Virus record (IMG/VR): IMGVR_UViG_3300044641_004856
Coordinates: 28,875 to 92,874 of that record
Source: a virus
Reading direction: 5' to 3' (one strand)
DNA length: 64,000 bases
Of this stretch, positions 7,481 through 61,667 are shown piece after piece (position 1 is the first letter of the stretch; each line of letters begins with the position of its first letter). The translations under genes and the position numbers were made by a program. A model generated the notes under the pieces. That model did not search any database, was not told the DNA's origin, and was given only the letters and a program-made list of their open reading frames with translations.

Positions 7481-10195
7481 ATGGCAGAATTAAACGATTC
7501 GTTAAAACAAACCGACGAATTGTTATCCAGCATTGTCAAAAGTCTGACCTCTGCTGAGCAAATAACTAAACGCCTTGAAGGTTCTATGGGTGGAGTTGCT
7601 GGAAAAGCAAAGTCTGCTAAGGGTGGTGGTGACCGACATATCGGTACGGGTCAACATAGCCAAATGCCACACATGGACAAAGTAACTTTTAGTGGACAAG
7701 AAAAAGTTGATAGCACTGCAGAAATTGCTATGCGAGAGGGTATGGAGGCCACTAGATATGGCTTAACCCCTACTCGTGGTCAAAAATTATTGGGAGTTGG
7801 TCAAGGACTTGCACAAGCAACCTTTGGTATTGCTGCTGGAGCAATGGCTGCAATGCCAGGAGTTGCCGAAGTTGGTGCAAGTGCTGGTAACTATTACGGA
7901 GCATCTATTCGTTCTAATATGAGCCGTACTTCAATAATGAATGCCACTTTTGGTGGTTTAGCAGGTGGAGTTACGAGCACTCTTTCTTCTTCAAATATTG
8001 CAAGTATTGCTGCAGCAAGAGGCATTATGCCAGGAAGTGCTCAATACAATGCTTTAGTTGCAGATGTTGGTGGTGCTGCACGGTATATGAACATGGCAAA
8101 TGAAAACGCTATGGTTGCCATGTCTGGTTTTACTCAAGGAGACTTTTCCTCTCGTTTATACAACATTGGTGTTAGCACTTACGATTCAAAAACTGGTAAG
8201 GCTCGAGGCCAAGATGAAATTTTTGGTCAACTCTACGGTCGTCTCACTCAAGGTCAAGGAAAAATGAGTGTAGAAGAGACTATGAATAGTTTTCAAGCAG
8301 GTGGTTTTAACAAAGCAGTTACTGATTTAGGAATGACAGAAGACCAAAGACAACTTTTTATGCAATATTCTGTTGATAGAGCAGCAGGAAAACCAACTGA
8401 TTTATCTAAACTAGGGTACGGACAAAATCCTCTAGCGGATAAAATGCGTATTACCGCATCTGATACATCGGTTTTAAATACGTACACCGAACCCGTATTA
8501 AAAGGACTTAAAGCAGCAGCCGATTTAATTGAGACCACAGTTAATCCTGCATTAGAAAAATTGGCTGGTACTGCAGGAGTGGCATCAGGATTTTTAGGTG
8601 GTATGGGTGAATCACGTGCAGGAATGGGCATGGGTATCGCTGGTGGTGGAATTGTTCAAGGATTGATGACTGCTGGTGGTGCTTTCTTAGGTGCTAAAGG
8701 TGCTCAAGGTCTTTTAGGCAAAGGCGGTTCTAGTGGGGTTAAAGCAGGAGGTTTTAAAGGTCTTTTAGGAAAAGCAGGACTTGCTGGATTAACCTACATG
8801 GGATTAGAGCAAGTACAAAAGTTTTTTAACAAAGCAGATGTTCCAGATGAAATGCGTTATATCGCAAACCTTTTATTTGACGCAGGTCAAGGTGGGTTGA
8901 CTGGATTAGCAACAGGAAACCCTTATGCAGCCCTTGCTGGTACAGTCGCAGGCACTGCTGGTGGTGTTGCAAACCCTTACGGTGGTAAAGGCGGTGGTAC
9001 TCCAGGATTTGGTGCTGCTTTTGGTTCTAGTGGCGTAAATAGTGCAAACCCCTCTTCACCAATTACTAATGGTGGTGTAGGAACACCTTACGGTGCTACG
9101 GGAAGTTTATGGTCTGGGGGAAGTCACACAGGTCAAGATTACCCATGTGCTGTTGGAACTCCTGTTCACGCATCATTAGGTGGAATGGTTATTAATACAA
9201 ACCCTGGTTCAGATTACGGTAAAACTGTAGAAATTGACCACGGAAACGGTTATCAAACTTTGTACGGACATTTATCGGAAGTACTGGTCAAAGTTGGAGA
9301 CACTGTTACGCAAGGACAGTTAATTGCAAAAAGTGGTGACACTGGAAAAGTTACAGGTCCTCACTTGCACTATGAAGTACGTAAAGGAAAAAATAACCCA
9401 GTAAATCCTGATGAATTAAGCAAAGCAGGAGGTTCTGGTTTAGCAGGAGTTCTGGGTGCAAGTGGCAATAATGGAACATCTACTAACGGGCAACAGTTAT
9501 CGGCTATGGTTGGTTCTAAATCTTTACAAGAATTACTAAGTGGGGGTATAGGAAATCTTCCTGCTGAACTTTTGGGTAGTGCTAGTAGTAGTAGTGCTAC
9601 AAGTGGTGGAGCAAAGGTAATCCTTGGAACTGGTAGTGAAAAAGAATGGGCTACTGGTCTTCTTCAAAAAATGGGTGCTCCAGTCAGTGATGCTTCTATA
9701 AATGCTCTTACTACATGGATGCGTCATGAAGGTGGACACTGGAAAAACTCTGCTCACTACAATCCTTTAAATACCACATTAGACATGAGTAACAATGAGT
9801 CTATGAATAGTGTGGGAGTAAAACGCTACAAATCTTGGGAAGAAGGATACGCAGCAACTATAGGAACGTTGACAGGAAAAAATGCTGGGGACCGTGGGTA
9901 TACAGCAATTGTAGATGCTTTAAAGTCAGGTGCTTCGACAGATGCTATTTTAGCAGCAGTAAATAACTCAGCATGGATGACTGGTAAAACGGGAAAAAAC
10001 CCTTATAAGTTCCAAGGTGGAGGCTCACCTTCAGTTGCAACACTTAACTCTTCAGCAGGACTAAATATATCTCCGTCTATCACAATTAATGTAAGCGTTC
10101 AACAAGCATCTTACGCTGAGGCTATGAGTCTTGTTGAAATTGTTAAAACTCAACTTGAAAAAGAAAATTTACTTAGAATAGTAGGTGGGAAATAA
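7481..10195 (+). CDS. Tape measure protein with M23 peptidase and C-terminal lysozyme-like domains
   Basis: Gly/Ala-rich helical N-terminus; M23 motifs HTGQD, YGHL, GPHLHYEVR; WMRHEGG...YNPLNT lysozyme-like region. Confidence 0.85.
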   Translation: MAELNDSLKQTDELLSSIVKSLTSAEQITKRLEGSMGGVAGKAKSAKGGGDRHIGTGQHSQMPHMDKVTFSGQEKVDSTAEIAMREGMEATRYGLTPTRGQKLLGVGQGLAQATFGIAAGAMAAMPGVAEVGASAGNYYGASIRSNMSRTSIMNATFGGLAGGVTSTLSSSNIASIAAARGIMPGSAQYNALVADVGGAARYMNMANENAMVAMSGFTQGDFSSRLYNIGVSTYDSKTGKARGQDEIFGQLYGRLTQGQGKMSVEETMNSFQAGGFNKAVTDLGMTEDQRQLFMQYSVDRAAGKPTDLSKLGYGQNPLADKMRITASDTSVLNTYTEPVLKGLKAAADLIETTVNPALEKLAGTAGVASGFLGGMGESRAGMGMGIAGGGIVQGLMTAGGAFLGAKGAQGLLGKGGSSGVKAGGFKGLLGKAGLAGLTYMGLEQVQKFFNKADVPDEMRYIANLLFDAGQGGLTGLATGNPYAALAGTVAGTAGGVANPYGGKGGGTPGFGAAFGSSGVNSANPSSPITNGGVGTPYGATGSLWSGGSHTGQDYPCAVGTPVHASLGGMVINTNPGSDYGKTVEIDHGNGYQTLYGHLSEVLVKVGDTVTQGQLIAKSGDTGKVTGPHLHYEVRKGKNNPVNPDELSKAGGSGLAGVLGASGNNGTSTNGQQLSAMVGSKSLQELLSGGIGNLPAELLGSASSSSATSGGAKVILGTGSEKEWATGLLQKMGAPVSDASINALTTWMRHEGGHWKNSAHYNPLNTTLDMSNNESMNSVGVKRYKSWEEGYAATIGTLTGKNAGDRGYTAIVDALKSGASTDAILAAVNNSAWMTGKTGKNPYKFQGGGSPSVATLNSSAGLNISPSITINVSVQQASYAEAMSLVEIVKTQLEKENLLRIVGGK

Positions 10196-16230: not shown

Positions 16231-17547
16231 ATGCCTATTCAGATTAAAGTCGCCAACAATTACGTTTCTTCAGGCTCTGCGTTTTTTAAAAGCGGTGGTG
16301 CTTGGATAAAGGCTAAAGAAGGTTACGTAAAAGTTGAAGGCACTTGGCGTAAGTTTTTTGTGTCGGAGTTTAAAGACTTCTTTGAAAGAGCAAACGCTTC
16401 AACATTAGGCACTTCTCCTACTGGACAAGCCTGGACAGTTGGTAGAGGCACTTGGAACATACTTGATGGTAAAGCACAAATTGCTACAGCAAAGTCAACA
16501 TACCCAATTGCTTTAGTTGATGTTGGACTAACAGATTTTGAACTACAGGCAAATGACATGGTTCCAGGAGTTGGCGTAATAATTAGGGCAGAGTCTTCTA
16601 CTACTTGGTGGGGCTTAGTTGGTTGGAATAACCAAGTTGCTTACACATATTCTTTTTGCCCACAAGCACTCGTTAATCAAGGCTACTGCATTGTAGATAA
16701 TATTTGCCAGCAAACAATTTGTCCTGGTGGGTATCAAACAGGGCAAAATTGTTCCCAAGGTCCTTGTTTAGTGCGTGAGCCAGACCAATTAGTTGGTATT
16801 GATTGTACGTATGCTTACTATCCAGGAACAACAACCTGTACTCCCGTCTCTACGCCACAAACAACTTGCCAAAACGTATGCATTAAAAACTGTACTAAAA
16901 CAACTTGTACACCAGGAAAAACAACCTGTACCAACTACCCTAAATGGGGAAGACAGTGTTACACCAGTGAACCAACCTGTACCTCTTCCTCTTTCTGTTG
17001 TGATAGAGATACGGTATGCAGTACAACAATTGTTATAACGCAATCTTGCACAACATCAGCAGGTAGTTATCGAGAAACGTGTGCTGGGTACTCTAGTCAG
17101 CAAGGAGCGTGTACCTCCTATGGTGCAGACGTTTGTACATCTTTTTCAACTTGTCCTGGTGGAACTACAACTCAAAACGTTGTCTGCGGTTACCCAGACT
17201 GTGCACAACTAGGTTCACGTCAAGTATGCCCAGTTGCAGAACAAACGGCGACTGGATACAATTACTTCTATAAACTTTACCTAATTAAGTCTGTAAATGG
17301 CGTTATAACCGTAGAACAACAATTTGATATTGGGGAAAACTTCAAGGCTCTTGGTGTGCTTGGAGTCGGTCCTAACTTAGCAGTAAACGTGTATAGAGAT
17401 AACGCCTATAACGACCAGATTAAGGTGTTGAGTTACTCGTCGTTTACCTCCCCAGCAGGAAGTAACTTCGGTATATTTGGCTATCCTTCAAATTACCAAG
17501 AAGGTAATACAATTGGTTCAATACAAGTAAAGCAACCAGGAGCATAA
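16231..17547 (+). CDS. Cys-rich putative tail fibre / receptor-binding protein
   Basis: N-terminal KSGGAW..YVKVEGTWRK fibre-attachment motif; beta-rich domain interrupted by a 191-aa Thr/Cys-rich insert. Confidence 0.6.
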   Translation: MPIQIKVANNYVSSGSAFFKSGGAWIKAKEGYVKVEGTWRKFFVSEFKDFFERANASTLGTSPTGQAWTVGRGTWNILDGKAQIATAKSTYPIALVDVGLTDFELQANDMVPGVGVIIRAESSTTWWGLVGWNNQVAYTYSFCPQALVNQGYCIVDNICQQTICPGGYQTGQNCSQGPCLVREPDQLVGIDCTYAYYPGTTTCTPVSTPQTTCQNVCIKNCTKTTCTPGKTTCTNYPKWGRQCYTSEPTCTSSSFCCDRDTVCSTTIVITQSCTTSAGSYRETCAGYSSQQGACTSYGADVCTSFSTCPGGTTTQNVVCGYPDCAQLGSRQVCPVAEQTATGYNYFYKLYLIKSVNGVITVEQQFDIGENFKALGVLGVGPNLAVNVYRDNAYNDQIKVLSYSSFTSPAGSNFGIFGYPSNYQEGNTIGSIQVKQPGA

Positions 17548-17548
17548 T

Positions 17549-17830
17549 ATGAGTGAAAAAAGTCCGTGGCAGTTATGGAAAGAAAAAAACCCAGGTGATG
17601 CTGTTCGTCCATGGGATTTACTAAATCCTAATGTAAAGCGAGTCGACGATGAAACTCGGGATTACCGACTTAACCATTGTCTAGGATGCAAACATTTAAT
17701 TAAAGCCACTAAAACATGTACTAAATGTGGCTGTTTTATGACAGAAAAAACTAAATTAGCCCATGCTTCATGCCCCATTGGACTATGGGGTGCTGTTACT
17801 ATAGAACCTACAAACACAGAAGGAGAATAA
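17549..17830 (+). CDS. Small Cys-motif protein (DUF6171-like)
   Basis: RLNHCLGC...TCTKCGCF...KTKL..ASCPIGLW. Confidence 0.65.
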   Translation: MSEKSPWQLWKEKNPGDAVRPWDLLNPNVKRVDDETRDYRLNHCLGCKHLIKATKTCTKCGCFMTEKTKLAHASCPIGLWGAVTIEPTNTEGE

Positions 17831-17831
17831 A

Positions 17832-18017
17832 ATGGCGGAGAACCAAAGATTTTTAGCGTTTGTCCTTGATGGAGAAGTAGCAGAAATACTTCAGACCGAT
17901 GACAAACTTGCTGCTATTTTTCTAAGTCAACCAAAAGTAGTTGAATTTGATAGAGAAAAAGACGGTGTTGTTGCTGGTATGAAGTACGACGGCACGAAGT
18001 TTAGTAACCCTGAGTAA
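17832..18017 (+). CDS. Small tail-module protein (possible fibre chaperone)
   Basis: AFVLDGEVAEI...GMKYDGTKFSNP; AGGAG RBS. Confidence 0.5.
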   Translation: MAENQRFLAFVLDGEVAEILQTDDKLAAIFLSQPKVVEFDREKDGVVAGMKYDGTKFSNPE

Positions 18018-34043: not shown

Positions 34044-34361
34044 ATGGATGAACCGTCTTACACATGGCGGTATAAAGCAAAGTGTCGCGGAGAAGATACT
34101 GACACCTTTTACCCACCTCGTGATAAAGAAAAGTACACAATCATTGCAGATAGAGCAAAGACGTTTTGTTTTGGAGCCACAGGGAACAAGCCCTGTCCAG
34201 TTCGTTTAAATTGTCTGTGGGATGCTGTAGAAAGGGATGAGCCACATGGAATTTGGGGAGGCCTGTCTCATCGAGAAAGAAATGCTCTAATTCGCAAATG
34301 GAAAAAGAAGTACAAAAAAACTATGTCGTTAGAACAATACATTAAAGAACTAGAGGATTAA
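34044..34361 (+). CDS. whiB: WhiB-family transcriptional regulator
   Basis: WRYKAKC...AKTFC...CPVRLNC...GIWGGLSHRER. Confidence 0.92.
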   Translation: MDEPSYTWRYKAKCRGEDTDTFYPPRDKEKYTIIADRAKTFCFGATGNKPCPVRLNCLWDAVERDEPHGIWGGLSHRERNALIRKWKKKYKKTMSLEQYIKELED

Positions 34362-50462: not shown

Positions 50463-51758
50463 TCACCTTTCTCCCAACAGATACTCGTCCGCAAGTTCCC
50501 CTGCTTTCGACTGCTGGTGACGGATACGGTGTAAATACCGCTCCGTAGTTGTGATTGACTGATGACCCAAACGTTCCTTAACCTCATGCACATCAACACC
50601 CTTCTTTAACAGTTGAGTGGCGTTTGCATGTCTTAAGTCGTGCGTTTTTGGATACCAACCAATACCTGACTTTTCTATGGCTTCGTTCCAAATGGTTCTC
50701 CACTTGGTTCGACTGAGGTGACCTGAGCCGATACTTTGGCTAAGGCTGTCTCTGCCTTTTGATTTGTCCTTTCTGTATTGTTTGCGATAATCCTTTATCG
50801 CTTGTTTACACAGGTCACACCTGCACTTTCCCACGTTGTAAGCGTAAGGAGTTGCATGGTTGAAGACCCTACCTTTGACAGTAAAGGTCTCGTTAGTTCT
50901 TATGGAAGAACTACCTGCATGAATTAGTTTACCAACTTCGATGGTGTTATTGCCAAACAAGAGGTCATTATTAGATAACTTTTTATCTGCTATAAAGGCT
51001 TTTAACGTCTTTAAGAGAGTTGTGCTAATAACTACTGTTCTTTTATGATTGTTTTTAGTTGTATGCACTACTAAAAAACGCGACCCATTATTTGCATCTT
51101 TACCAATGTCGCATACAGTTCTACGAATGTAAACTTCTTTAGACTTAAAGTTAAAGTCTTTCACCCGTAACTCTGTTGCTTCTCCAAAGCGACAGCCTGT
51201 TGCAATTAAAAACTGAGCAAACAACTTTGCTCCGTCTGTAGGCAACTTGGCAACTATTTGCTTGAAGTCGTCAGGCTCTAACGTAATGAATGGGTCAGTC
51301 TGAGGCACTTTCACCCTAACCCCATGCGTAGGGTTTGCCACCATTCGCTCATCTTGAACAAGCGGACGGAAAGCAGACCCCAAGGCAATCTTCACATGGA
51401 GAACGGTGGAAAGGCTTACGCCTTCTTGAATTAGTTTTTCAAAAAGGCTACGAACATCACGTTTTGTTATAGACAAGACCTGCTTATTTCCTAAAGAAGG
51501 AATGACATACTTCTTTAACGAAGTCTTGTAGGTTTTTTTAGTTATTAAGCGAACATCTGTTCTAATCAACCATTCCTCTAGGTATGCCTCTAAGGTTTGG
51601 TTAGATTCTGACTCATCAACTGACAGCCCACCTTCCGCAAGAATTGCAGAGGATAAGGCTTTGGCTCTTGAGTCAAACGTGCCTGCGGACACTACGCGAT
51701 TATTTTTGTTGCGGAAGTAACCTGTGTGACGTTTATTTCGGGTAATTACATAAGCCAT
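50463..51758 (-). CDS. int: Tyrosine recombinase / integrase with inserted Zn-finger-like motif
   Basis: TGCRFGEA, HDLRH, LGH, TTERY catalytic set; insert HATPYAYNVGKCRCDLC. Confidence 0.92.
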   Translation of the reverse strand: MAYVITRNKRHTGYFRNKNNRVVSAGTFDSRAKALSSAILAEGGLSVDESESNQTLEAYLEEWLIRTDVRLITKKTYKTSLKKYVIPSLGNKQVLSITKRDVRSLFEKLIQEGVSLSTVLHVKIALGSAFRPLVQDERMVANPTHGVRVKVPQTDPFITLEPDDFKQIVAKLPTDGAKLFAQFLIATGCRFGEATELRVKDFNFKSKEVYIRRTVCDIGKDANNGSRFLVVHTTKNNHKRTVVISTTLLKTLKAFIADKKLSNNDLLFGNNTIEVGKLIHAGSSSIRTNETFTVKGRVFNHATPYAYNVGKCRCDLCKQAIKDYRKQYRKDKSKGRDSLSQSIGSGHLSRTKWRTIWNEAIEKSGIGWYPKTHDLRHANATQLLKKGVDVHEVKERLGHQSITTTERYLHRIRHQQSKAGELADEYLLGER

Positions 51759-59690: not shown

Positions 59691-61667
59691 TCATTGAGAT
59701 ACCAAACGACGTGCGATTGCAGTTCGCACTAGTGATTGACCAAGAGACAAGATGTCTTTGGCTTCACCAATTCGTTTGATTATCTCAAAGTTATGTCTGC
59801 ACCTTTCTAATCCTTCATTCGAAACTTCATTAGGATAGAGAAGTGCTTGGCAAGTGAGAACACCTGCTTCTTTCATTCTTCTTACAGACTCTTCCGCTTT
59901 ATCTCCGCCCCATGCACCGTCAGTAATCATGAAGAGAATGCGGATTGGCTTGTCTGTAGTAGCAAGAATGTTTTGTGCATTTAAGATTGCAACTTCAGGT
60001 TGTGTTGTTCCACTTGCACCTGAATCTCTTACTGTTGTATCTGCTTTTTCATCTGCAGAATAAAGTAAGTGAGTATGTGAATCAAACGTGTAAACAGTTG
60101 TGCGTGCCTGCACTTTGTCTAAAGAACGTTTGATAGCCCACAAACTTTTGTATGCTTCTTTTGCATTGTGACCTTGCATTGAAGAAGAACGGTCAAGAAG
60201 AATAACTGCTTCGATTGCAGTTACGTCATCGCGACCGCTTTGCCACTTGTTAAACAAAGTGCGAACACTTGCACCTTGCATGTAACGATTGGCATTTAAC
60301 TTTCCACTTCGTTGCTCAGTTAACCATGAAGGGTCGTAGTTTGCTTTGAGTCTTTCTAACTCACGAGCAAACGAACGTTGCACCATTACTAAGTCTGCAG
60401 TTGCAGATACAGAACGGTAATCAGCACGTGATACCGACTCTGCATTAACAGTTCCCATAAGAGGTTTACCAACAACCTGCATTGATAACTTATTTAGATT
60501 ATCCATAAGTTCTTCAGTAACTGATTGGATAATCTCTTCCATGGTGTCTGTAACTTCTTGAGAGTTTGCAGTTTTACTTTTACCACCAGCACCAGCATGA
60601 CGGCTTAAGTTATCTGCTTCATAAGAATCATCAGACTCTGAATCATCATCAGAATCTTCAGCAACAGTTACGTCACCAAAGTCAGAAGAAGAATCGGAAT
60701 CTTCTTTTGAATCTGAATCATCATCTGAATCTAATTCATCATCAGAATCATTACCACCATTACCACCTTTATCGTTTGGGTCTGCAAAGTTATCTGAAGA
60801 AGAGTTAGATTGTGAATCTGAATCTGAATCTGAATCATCATCAGAATCTGAATCATCATCAGAATCAGCAGAAGAAGATTGTGTATCTTCTTTATCTAAT
60901 TCTTTTTCTTGCTTCTCTGCATTCTTACGGTCACGCTCTTGTTCACGCTTTGGTGCAGGACGTGAATCAGAAGACTCATGACCTTGGAATGGTCTCGCTT
61001 CATGACCGTTTGGGTCTGCAAGATTATCGCCCTGAATTAATTCTGCGAATCGTGCAATTAATTCTTTTGCACGTTCTGTATCGTCAGGGAATAACAGCAA
61101 ACGGTATTCATCAATTACTTCACCAAGTGCAACTATGTTTTCTTGTTTTGCATAGTGCTTGCGTGCAAGTTGACGAATCTCAAGAGGCAAGTATCTGCGA
61201 CCGCGTAATAACGGATACGCATTCTCGATTGCTTCAGGAGTATTAAGAATGAATTGTGCAACAGTTGCAGTCAACCAATTAACAGTTGAAGGGAATCTGC
61301 CAACCATAAGTGTTTCGATACGTTGGTCTTCTAACGCATTGAATGCTTTCCAGTAATTGTTTTCAATTACCCATAAGCAGATGTCAGAACCGTTACGTGG
61401 TGTGTAACGAACGTGTGCTAACTCGTGAAAGTCCAAGCCTTGGATTGATAACAAAGTCTCTGTATCAAACTTGTCATTAATCTTTGCTTCGTTGAACCAT
61501 ACGTCGTTAGCACCCGACCAAGCAGGAGCACCGTCAGGTTGATTGACGATGTGCACTTTAATTGGACGAAGTGCAATAACAGAATTAGCACGTTGAAACA
61601 CTTGTGCTAATCGAAGTAATCTATCGCGCTTTTCGTTCTGTTGTTCTTGTGTTGTTAGTTGTTGCAT
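59691..61667 (-). CDS. vWA-domain protein (CobT-like) with HExxH region and Asp/Ser-rich linker
   Basis: HELAH, NALEDQRIE, MIDAS LLDRSSSM, GTT, ITDG. Confidence 0.85.
   Translation of the reverse strand: MQQLTTQEQQNEKRDRLLRLAQVFQRANSVIALRPIKVHIVNQPDGAPAWSGANDVWFNEAKINDKFDTETLLSIQGLDFHELAHVRYTPRNGSDICLWVIENNYWKAFNALEDQRIETLMVGRFPSTVNWLTATVAQFILNTPEAIENAYPLLRGRRYLPLEIRQLARKHYAKQENIVALGEVIDEYRLLLFPDDTERAKELIARFAELIQGDNLADPNGHEARPFQGHESSDSRPAPKREQERDRKNAEKQEKELDKEDTQSSSADSDDDSDSDDDSDSDSDSQSNSSSDNFADPNDKGGNGGNDSDDELDSDDDSDSKEDSDSSSDFGDVTVAEDSDDDSESDDSYEADNLSRHAGAGGKSKTANSQEVTDTMEEIIQSVTEELMDNLNKLSMQVVGKPLMGTVNAESVSRADYRSVSATADLVMVQRSFARELERLKANYDPSWLTEQRSGKLNANRYMQGASVRTLFNKWQSGRDDVTAIEAVILLDRSSSMQGHNAKEAYKSLWAIKRSLDKVQARTTVYTFDSHTHLLYSADEKADTTVRDSGASGTTQPEVAILNAQNILATTDKPIRILFMITDGAWGGDKAEESVRRMKEAGVLTCQALLYPNEVSNEGLERCRHNFEIIKRIGEAKDILSLGQSLVRTAIARRLVSQ
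60620..60880 (-). repeat. Low-complexity (GAT/TCA)n repeat encoding an Asp/Ser linker
   Basis: GAATCTGAATCATCATCA-like units; DSDDDSDSDDD in the protein. Confidence 0.8.

Follow-up and report, generated by a model that had tools for sequence, protein, structure and literature searches.

Cystine ladders are antiparallel strands in which nested disulfides replace a hydrophobic core, as in theta-defensins, hairpins of the tachyplesin/protegrin type and Chlamydomonas HAP2. Theta-defensins are cyclic, with 18 amino acids (aa) and three parallel disulfides, and the cystine ladder-like motif of HAP2 comprises 37 residues (PMC6327110); in the literature that we searched, cystine ladders were found only in such small forms, each with three rungs at most. 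Here we describe a 438-aa viral protein (hereafter the ladder protein), encoded in IMG/VR virus record IMGVR_UViG_3300044641_004856, in which 26 cysteines in mirror order would likewise link two antiparallel strands. The DNA analysed (the window) is the last 64,000 bases (positions 28875-92874) of this 92,874-base record, which is estimated to be 96% complete.

Other described systems share single features with this protein. Bovine ultralong complementarity-determining region H3 (CDR-H3) loops are also long two-stranded beta-ribbons that project from a beta-sandwich, with cysteines and hypervariability. Their stalk has about 12 residues per strand. This stalk is described as free of disulfides, which are placed within the folded knob. 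The stems of beta-pore-forming toxins (aerolysin, lysenin and the anthrax protective antigen (PA) pore) are also very long hairpins that emerge from a beta-rich domain. The C-type-lectin proteins of diversity-generating retroelements (DGRs), Mtd and the tentaclins, also combine a lectin-type phage adhesin with a hypervariable surface beta-hairpin; in tentaclins, which are targeted by DGRs, the C-type lectin domain bears short hairpins (PMC10743442).

Mirror order of the cysteines

All 26 cysteines of the ladder protein fall in residues 143-333 (nucleotides 16657-17229), 13 on either side of the loop C-TNYPKWGRQ-C. This had been claimed in an earlier reading of the DNA letters alone (the sequence-only reading) and was exact on re-translation; the outward spacings given there, which total 78 on each arm, were reproduced as well. 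The gene and its parts, as interpreted below with the help of an AlphaFold2 (AF2) model, are the following.

16231-17547, + strand: gene of the ladder protein, 438 aa plus stop (list of open reading frames (ORFs) and translation), at the tail-fibre end of a myovirus tail module
16231-16365, + strand: N-terminal beta-rich segment, residues 1-45 (AF2 strands in 5-43; three tandem (V/I)KVxGxW-type repeats)
16366-16656, + strand: first half of the predicted concanavalin A (ConA)-like sandwich, residues 46-142, Cys-free (VIA-align structural matches)
16657-16929, + strand: left (outgoing) arm of the putative hairpin, residues 143-233, Cys 1-13 (cysteine mapping, covariation, AF2)
16657-16734, + strand: conserved base of the insert, left side, residues 143-168, Cys 1-4, ending in CPGGY (entropy mostly 0-0.3 bits)
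16879-16893, + strand: invariant node, left side, C217-x3-C221 (invariant in 41 homologs; entropy 0 at both cysteines)
16930-16956, + strand: tip loop TNYPKWGRQ, residues 234-242 (varies among close relatives)
16957-17229, + strand: right (returning) arm of the putative hairpin, residues 243-333, Cys 14-26 (cysteine mapping, covariation, AF2)
16996-17019, + strand: invariant node, right side, C256-C257-D-R-D-T-V-C263 (C256, C257, D258 and D260 invariant in 41 homologs; entropy 0)
17152-17229, + strand: conserved base of the insert, right side, residues 308-333, Cys 23-26, beginning with CPGG (low entropy)
17230-17544, + strand: second half of the predicted ConA-like sandwich, residues 334-438, Cys-free (AF2, VIA-align)

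In the translation of 16231-17544, the cysteines stand at residues 143, 153, 159, 164, 174, 179, 192, 203, 213, 217, 221, 226 and 233 on the left and at 243, 250, 256, 257, 263, 273, 284, 294, 302, 308, 319, 324 and 333 on the right. When they are paired from the centre outward, the two positions add up to exactly 476 (i+j=476) for pairs 13/14, 12/15, 9/18, 8/19, 7/20, 5/22 and 1/26, and the other six pairs are off by 1-4. In a post hoc test with 200,000 shuffles of the 25 gaps, six or more non-trivial exact mirror pairs were rare (P = 8.5e-5), as was a summed deviation as small as the one observed (P = 1.5e-5). The mirror pattern is thus real and beyond chance expectation. No significant sequence similarity was detected between the two arms (best BLASTP E = 0.047), and the DNA that codes for CPGG in the left base is repeated on the right arm. 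Threonine makes up 33 of the 191 insert residues (17%) vs 17 of 247 in the flanks (7%), which contain no cysteine. This composition, together with the sandwich fold of the flanks, agrees with the earlier description of a Thr-rich insert that splits a Cys-free beta domain.

According to the AF2 model, residues 46-142 and 334-438 form one ConA-like beta-sandwich of the lectin/carbohydrate-binding module (CBM) type, a likeness at the level of the fold. Structural alignment with VIA-align matched CBM66 with Z-scores of 16.0-16.4 (root-mean-square deviation (rmsd) 2.4-2.5 A, 148 aligned residues; for 4b1m_A, Z 16.0, rmsd 2.5 A, 148/165 over model residues 52-435). The receptor-binding domains of actinophages share this flank fold and, like the ladder protein, belong to a tail or baseplate module: the central fibre protein gp20 of mycobacteriophage Douge (8zdq_v; 8zdq/8zdp) with Z 16.4, rmsd 2.7 A and 171 aligned residues, the receptor-binding domain of TM4 gp23 (9n6a_A) with Z 14.8, 3.0 A and 173 residues, and the J-1 Dit CBM2 (5ly8) with Z 12.9, 3.8 A and 181 residues. 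The Pan3 tailspike also matched (Z 11.0, 3.7 A, 171 residues). Alignments to the solved domains cover 148-181 of the 438 residues in the model, roughly the extent of the Cys-free flanks, so the 191-residue insert has no counterpart in these domains. At the sequence level, no Pfam family was matched with E up to 1, and a search of PDB chains with the family profile returned none with E up to 1.

The protein start, MPIQIKV, is conserved in nine related loci. The N-terminal repeats of about 13 aa each are retained in the consensus of 57 distant relatives despite wholly different inserts, and PHROG matches are weak and confined to the first 45 residues (phrog_25859, E = 4e-4, residues 12-44). Residues 1-45 are probably the attachment part that docks on the virion.

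Tests of pairing between the arms

We followed the gain and loss of cysteines in an alignment of 41 homologs, on which the AF2 run was based as well. The number of cysteines is even (20-34) in 40 of the 41, and when the k-th cysteine is paired with the (n+1-k)-th, the pattern of offsets recurs in almost every homolog. Where cysteines are missing, mirror partners are missing together: C5 and C22 (residues 174 and 302, 128 apart) in P0003, P0010, P0012 and many others, C12 and C15 in P0024, P0031 and P0032, C9 and C18 in P0015, C3 and C24 in P0035, and C13 and C14, the tip rung, in P0034. P0013, P0016 and P0033 carry an additional rung beside the tip, with equal spacing added to both arms. The coefficient phi for presence and absence was 1.0 for C159-C319, 0.95 for C174-C302, 0.95 for C226-C250 and 1.0 for C233-C243.

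On a tree built from the flanks alone, with the insert left out, state changes numbered 10 and 9 for C5/C22, 6 and 5 for C12/C15, and 3 and 3 each for C13/C14 and C3/C24. On supported branches, these four rungs gave 12 independent contrasts in the same direction, none in the opposite direction and one without difference; the non-mirror controls, C5 vs C15 and C12 vs C22, were random. C12/C15 is nested between C5 and C22 yet varies independently of them, so cassette exchange of the insert cannot explain the coupling.

Positions other than cysteines gave the same register. Computed over 106 variable columns without cysteine in the 36 closest sequences, mutual information with average product correction (MIp) peaked at i+j=476, with 0.28 at offset 0 and a smooth fall to the background of -0.03 beyond offset 8. 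Of the 25 highest-scoring long-range pairs, nearly all deviate from this anti-diagonal by three residues at most. In a scan of all antiparallel and parallel bands, the 476 band stood alone, and it could be followed from the tip itself to a distance of 75 residues. Several short anti-diagonals would be expected of tandem local modules, and additional bands of a ribbon folded back on itself; neither was found.

The AF2 model has a mean predicted local distance difference test (pLDDT) score of 78.7; scores range from 73 to 81 over the insert and from 80 to 91 over most of the sandwich. It pairs strands 158-163/313-318, 169-175/301-307, 179-182/294-297, 186-197/279-290, 201-227/249-275 and 231-236/240-245, all in register 476. 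With the whole model as query, the top Foldseek rows in the PDB were the long-hairpin pore forms of aerolysin and lysenin; these matches are weak (E = 6e-3 or worse, template modelling score about 0.07) and reflect shape only, not kinship.

A word-indexed search returned 43 relatives, 40 of them full-length, with 33-95% identity, and an exhaustive HMMER search of 1.84 billion cluster representatives (50% clustering) returned 249 proteins with E up to 1e-3; short relatives resemble contig-end fragments and so give no evidence of a split form. As judged from these sequences, the design is common to hundreds of uncultured phages. Among 82 relatives with at most 50% identity and at least 10 clustered cysteines, the cysteine number is even in 76, and 23 of these 76 are mirror-symmetric at p<0.01, vs 0.8 expected from gap shuffles. 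Over 119 proteins with 3 to 20 cysteine pairs, the lengths of the left and right arms are correlated (r = 0.87) and agree within three residues in 50. P0211 and P0194 are natural relatives with 3 and 10 putative rungs, respectively.

An independent subfamily around P0114, about 25% identical to the ladder protein, has exactly mirrored arms, for example with spacings 6,11,6,8,8,10,8,8 on either side of a loop of 17, the loop length of most members. Its arms consist of two different tandem 12-residue repeats, C-GG-SYSQTGP-SYY on the left and C-SNPVGPNY-SQV on the right, in equal copy number. Rungs number 3 to 11 in the subfamily, and proteins with more rungs are correspondingly longer (266-494 aa). 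A search for related loci with P0114 alone as query found nothing. Two further relatives, P0058 and P0084, are Cys-free and carry a low-complexity insert rich in Tyr, Thr, Ser and Pro at the equivalent place; their stalk may be stabilised by aromatic stacking in place of disulfides. Given these Cys-free relatives and the tandem or irregular patterns of others, the superfamily holds more than one stalk design.

The sequence-only reading had proposed a single-chain antiparallel hairpin with mirror cysteine order, and the co-loss of cysteines, the covariation and the AF2 strands agree with it. It had expected a covariation anti-diagonal centred near residue 238, where the single band at i+j=476 lies, and changes of insert length balanced between the arms, which is the pattern of the tip insertions, with one rung added per arm, and of the equal arms of the P0114 subfamily. 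What it had named as fatal to the idea, local tandem Cys modules or homologs lacking mirror symmetry, was not seen in the near family. The alignment supports mirror pairing of rungs 3/24, 5/22, 9/18, 12/15 and 13/14, that of 9/18 through a single co-loss, and the remaining rungs would by extension be cross-arm too. We regard one long hairpin with nested cysteine pairing on a lectin-like tail protein as very probable.

Several points limit this reading. P0021 is the sole homolog with an odd number of cysteines (25), having lost C22 and kept C5; it may be an evolutionary intermediate or contain a sequencing error. Of the 13 rungs, eight show little or no variation, and covariation is therefore uninformative on these. 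AF2 and covariation use the same alignment and hence are not fully independent, and for the P0114 subfamily (18-sequence alignment) AF2 gave no usable model, with pLDDT 22-27 in the insert. At the node, C217-C221 plus a vicinal C256-C257 disulfide may exist instead of cross-arm pairing. The AF2 strands break symmetrically at conserved Gly/Pro positions (G189, G199, G278, G292), where rung spacing is odd, and odd rung spacings (7, 11, 13) cannot all occupy non-hydrogen-bonded sites of a regular ribbon, so that bulges or kinks are needed. As modelled, the ribbon is probably segmented and maybe not straight, and the straight ribbon of about 30 nm that had been envisaged finds no support in the model with its symmetric breaks. 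If the ribbon is extended, its contour would reach up to about 30 nm (95 residues x 0.33 nm), which is an upper bound; an extended whisker of 20-30 nm is conceivable, with the balance tipped slightly against it.

Variability, proposed role and presumed cross-linking of the ribbon

The non-Cys codons of the insert have a nonsynonymous divergence (dN) of 0.50 and a ratio to synonymous divergence (dN/dS) of 0.49, vs 0.076 and 0.12 in the flanks (Nei-Gojobori, 45 pairs), which corresponds to about 6.5-fold faster evolution of these positions. The entropy per column amounts to 0.32 and 0.35 bits for the two flanks and to 1.19 bits for the insert. Most insert positions outside the base and the node vary, with about 1.5-3 bits; base and node are nearly invariant. 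The tip loop varies as well (0.7-2.3 bits per position in 36 relatives with at least 67% identity). Being as variable as most of the ribbon, YPKWGR is one variant among many rather than a conserved receptor probe, the role that the sequence-only reading had given it.

At the node, CCDRDTVC faces C217-x3-C221, and vicinal cysteines and two invariant aspartates stand out in an otherwise hypervariable ribbon. This suggests a special function of the node as a kink, a Ca2+ site or a docking site. We also considered a DGR as the source of variability and rejected it: no reverse transcriptase (PF00078) was matched in the 92.9-kb record, and no direct repeat of at least 45 nt involving the ladder gene was found within the 64-kb window.

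We propose that the ladder protein is a receptor-binding-type tail protein in which an N-terminal beta segment is followed by a lectin/CBM sandwich, and in which a hairpin of 191 residues would rise from a single sandwich loop. Its antiparallel arms, in register i+j=476, would be tied by nested pairs of cysteine k with cysteine 27-k, in up to 13 rungs. The ribbon is rich in Thr, Ser, Gln and Gly and has no hydrophobic core, so that cross-links would replace the core. The base (143-168/308-333) and the node would be fixed, and the other non-Cys positions, including the tip, free to vary and fast-evolving. The ribbon would thus serve as a length-tunable, hypervariable projection that contacts the host surface. 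We consider this overall explanation, a receptor-binding-type tail protein with a laddered, variable hairpin, to be likely. For a direct role in host recognition, in which the ribbon would bind or probe the host envelope, we lean towards a positive answer.

The same hairpin could instead be a passive strut or spacer that fixes a distance or makes the fibre stiffer, or a shield of the lectin site, its variability reflecting relaxed constraint on solvent-exposed positions and receptor binding being left to the lectin domain or to the 730-aa fibre-like protein encoded downstream. The insert dN/dS of 0.49 is not above 1, so relaxed constraint could explain the variability in the absence of an arms race over receptors, which counts against a recognition role. 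Variability that is spread over most of the ribbon and not focused on the tip points the same way, as do rung numbers from 3 to 20 in relatives, which would be expected of a length-setting element, and the fact that a lectin fold alone is a common receptor-binding module of phages. However, the ladder gene is the most diverged gene in a module that is otherwise 82-99% identical, as is typical of host-recognition determinants, and dS is near saturation, so that positively selected sites are compatible with a mean dN/dS below 1. We hold a purely passive hairpin to be unlikely, and host contact by the ribbon stays the preferred reading.

As to the bonds themselves, the insert contains no CxxC motif, and only two of 7822 residues across the 41 inserts are histidine. 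Cysteines are lost in twos, which fits independent two-Cys cross-links and not four-ligand metal sites. The metal ions that the sequence-only reading had allowed as an alternative are unlikely for the same reasons. Disulfides have been documented in virions of the freshwater cyanophage Pam3 (PMC9942802). True disulfide bonding of the mirror pairs seems probable to us; the bonds would form during maturation or once in oxic lake water. Against this stands that virions assemble in a reducing cytoplasm and that oxidation state is not readable from sequence.

Mirror cysteines that are in contact but reduced, or that bridge metal in the virion, would suit a protein made in reducing cytoplasm. No thiol oxidase was recognised in the window, and the adjoining 93-aa protein resembles a zinc ribbon. 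This state nevertheless appears improbable. Cysteines are gained and lost by two and not by four, with CxxC absent and His virtually so; a polar two-stranded ribbon that lacks covalent links has little holding it together; and the virions occur in oxic lake water, with virion disulfides known in another freshwater phage.

Bonding between subunits, or with other virion proteins to cross-link the baseplate or fibre, has precedent in the inter-subunit virion disulfides of phages Pam3 and Milano. We give it very little weight, since even cysteine numbers and mirror co-variation within one chain require no partner, the adjoining structural proteins are not Cys-rich, and the ends of the insert belong to one sandwich domain and so must meet. 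A string of local Cys-rich modules (EGF-like, knottin-like or granulin-like), or a compact Cys-rich domain, with incidental mirror spacing, is hardly credible and already disfavoured as far as sequence evidence reaches: short-range motifs do occur (Cx3Cx3C, CC and, on both arms, CPGG), and some distant relatives, e.g., P0060, have tandem patterns, but co-lost cysteines lie up to 128 residues apart and are always mirror partners, only one covariation band exists and the AF2 strands are mirror-symmetric.

Lanthipeptide-like Thr/Cys chemistry was also considered and discarded, as the second subfamily is Tyr/Gly-rich and not Thr-rich. No lanthipeptide enzyme was noticed among about 25 window ORFs scanned against Pfam or PHROGs, which was not a systematic search.

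Genomic setting and comparison with known systems

The ladder gene lies in a tail module. Upstream are genes for a tail sheath, a baseplate hub, a 904-aa tape-measure-like protein and a baseplate J/wedge protein; downstream are genes for a Cys-rich 93-aa protein, for proteins of 61 and 145 aa and for the 730-aa fibre-like protein. The order (sheath, tape measure, baseplate J, 156 aa, 222 aa, ladder gene, 93, 61, 145, 730 aa) is kept, the whole module being syntenic in 22 related viral loci. The set of sheath and baseplate genes identifies the phage as a myovirus, with the ladder gene at the fibre end of the module. Neighbouring genes are 82-99% identical where the ladder gene is 69-80% identical; in more distant phages, the values are 44-76% and 34-38%. 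In the 904-aa tape-measure-like protein (window 7481-10195, + strand), an M23-type metallopeptidase domain spans residues 530-650 and likely provides a cell-wall-digesting activity for entry. The two genes directly downstream of the ladder gene are the following.

17549-17830, + strand: 93-aa protein with six invariant cysteines (CxxC...CxxCxC...C) and invariant RPWDL (phrog_13558, E = 3e-15)
17832-18017, + strand: 61-aa gene, which travels with the 93-aa gene, even in L022 and L023, the loci most distant from this one (no family matched)

The 93-aa protein is only DUF6171-like (23.1 bits, below the Pfam cut-off of 27), and our literature search on DUF6171 found nothing. Wherever a related locus extends beyond the ladder gene (20 loci), the 93-aa gene comes next, together with the 61-aa gene. 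The protein occurs in at least 563 viral contigs beside varied genes and is thus a widespread, unnamed small phage protein. Among the best 80 loci of the 93-aa gene, a lectin-ladder gene lies upstream in about 19, and any Cys-rich ORF lies within 3.5 kb in 37. A dedicated redox chaperone or oxidase of the ladder is not supported, as the protein is also found away from ladder genes; perhaps it acts more generally in the maturation of tail fibres.

Among the other genes of the record are those for a family-A DNA polymerase and a class II ribonucleotide reductase. A WhiB-family regulator gene is located at window 34044-34361 (+ strand; Pfam Whib, 65.2 bits; PHROG WhiB, E = 5e-17), and since the WhiB model matched only the actinobacterium among 14 control genomes, the host is probably an actinobacterium. 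The DNA is present in at least 20 metagenome runs of lake water or freshwater from 20 studies; WhiB, 41% G+C and the lake-water origin together point to a host that is probably a low-GC freshwater actinobacterium. A tyrosine integrase gene (window 50463-51758, - strand) lies at the coding-strand switch, and the phage is probably temperate. Tandem 18-nt repeats (window 60597-60885, - strand) in the gene of a 658-aa protein with a vWA domain encode an acidic, Asp/Ser-rich low-complexity stretch.

The family is large and unnamed in every library searched. None of the relatives has a functional name: named sources say "hypothetical protein", entries of the HMMER library are not named, and "uncharacterized protein, uncultured Caudovirales phage" is the label of the six best BFVD models. 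No match was found among GenBank phages by DNA or by protein, nor in a set with one genome per prokaryote species, and the ESM Atlas gave no usable match.

If the proposed function holds, the ladder protein would represent a kind of host-recognition device new to phage biology, in abundant and mostly uncultured lake phages. We know of no description of the receptors or adsorption mechanisms of these phages, whose hosts are probably actinobacteria. The ladder would offer a simple, evolvable scaffold, resistant to proteases and heat, with many freely variable surface positions, and would be a natural means of displaying variable surfaces. It also raises the question of how 13 ordered disulfides form for a virion assembled in a reducing cytoplasm. 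We see evenly balanced prospects that this is a new structural class, namely a beta-ribbon of two strands from one chain that stands free, with up to about 100 residues in each arm and up to about 20 nested disulfides in place of the core, and that changes one rung at a time, serving freshwater actinophages as a hypervariable, length-tunable whisker that reaches and recognises the host envelope.

Set against described proteins, the likeness to bovine CDR-H3 noted by the sequence-only reading is loose. The projecting two-stranded ribbon is shared, but not the stalk-and-knob pattern: cysteines run along both arms here, with presumed disulfides along an arm of about 95 residues and a bare 9-residue tip loop, and the diversity is evolutionary and not somatic. 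The stems of beta-pore-forming toxins are stable only in an oligomeric barrel, amphipathic and free of disulfides, unlike the phage ladder. Mtd and the tentaclins differ in having another lectin fold, a short hairpin and diversity generated by reverse transcriptase. Our literature search for disulfide-rich hypervariable receptor-binding proteins of phages found nothing, nor did we find a description of a 13-rung, 191-residue ladder on a ConA-like phage adhesin. If the rungs are disulfides, the architecture would be unlike any solved structure ranked near the model in our searches, an isolated coreless beta-ribbon tens of nanometres long, its length tuned by evolution in single rungs.

The closest counterparts remain the cystine ladders. 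The phage ladder is neither cyclic nor a free peptide; it would be an insertion closed by a lectin domain and is not a member of the defensin family. Rung spacing is 0-12 residues here vs adjacent or alternate residues in known cystine ladders. This would be a cystine-ladder hairpin on a lectin-type receptor-binding protein, with a scale and modularity that have no described precedent. Known ladders have 2-3 rungs in 18-37 residues, whereas the ladder protein has 13 putative rungs in 191 residues and its relatives have 3 to about 20, which, if true, would make it by far the longest cystine ladder known.

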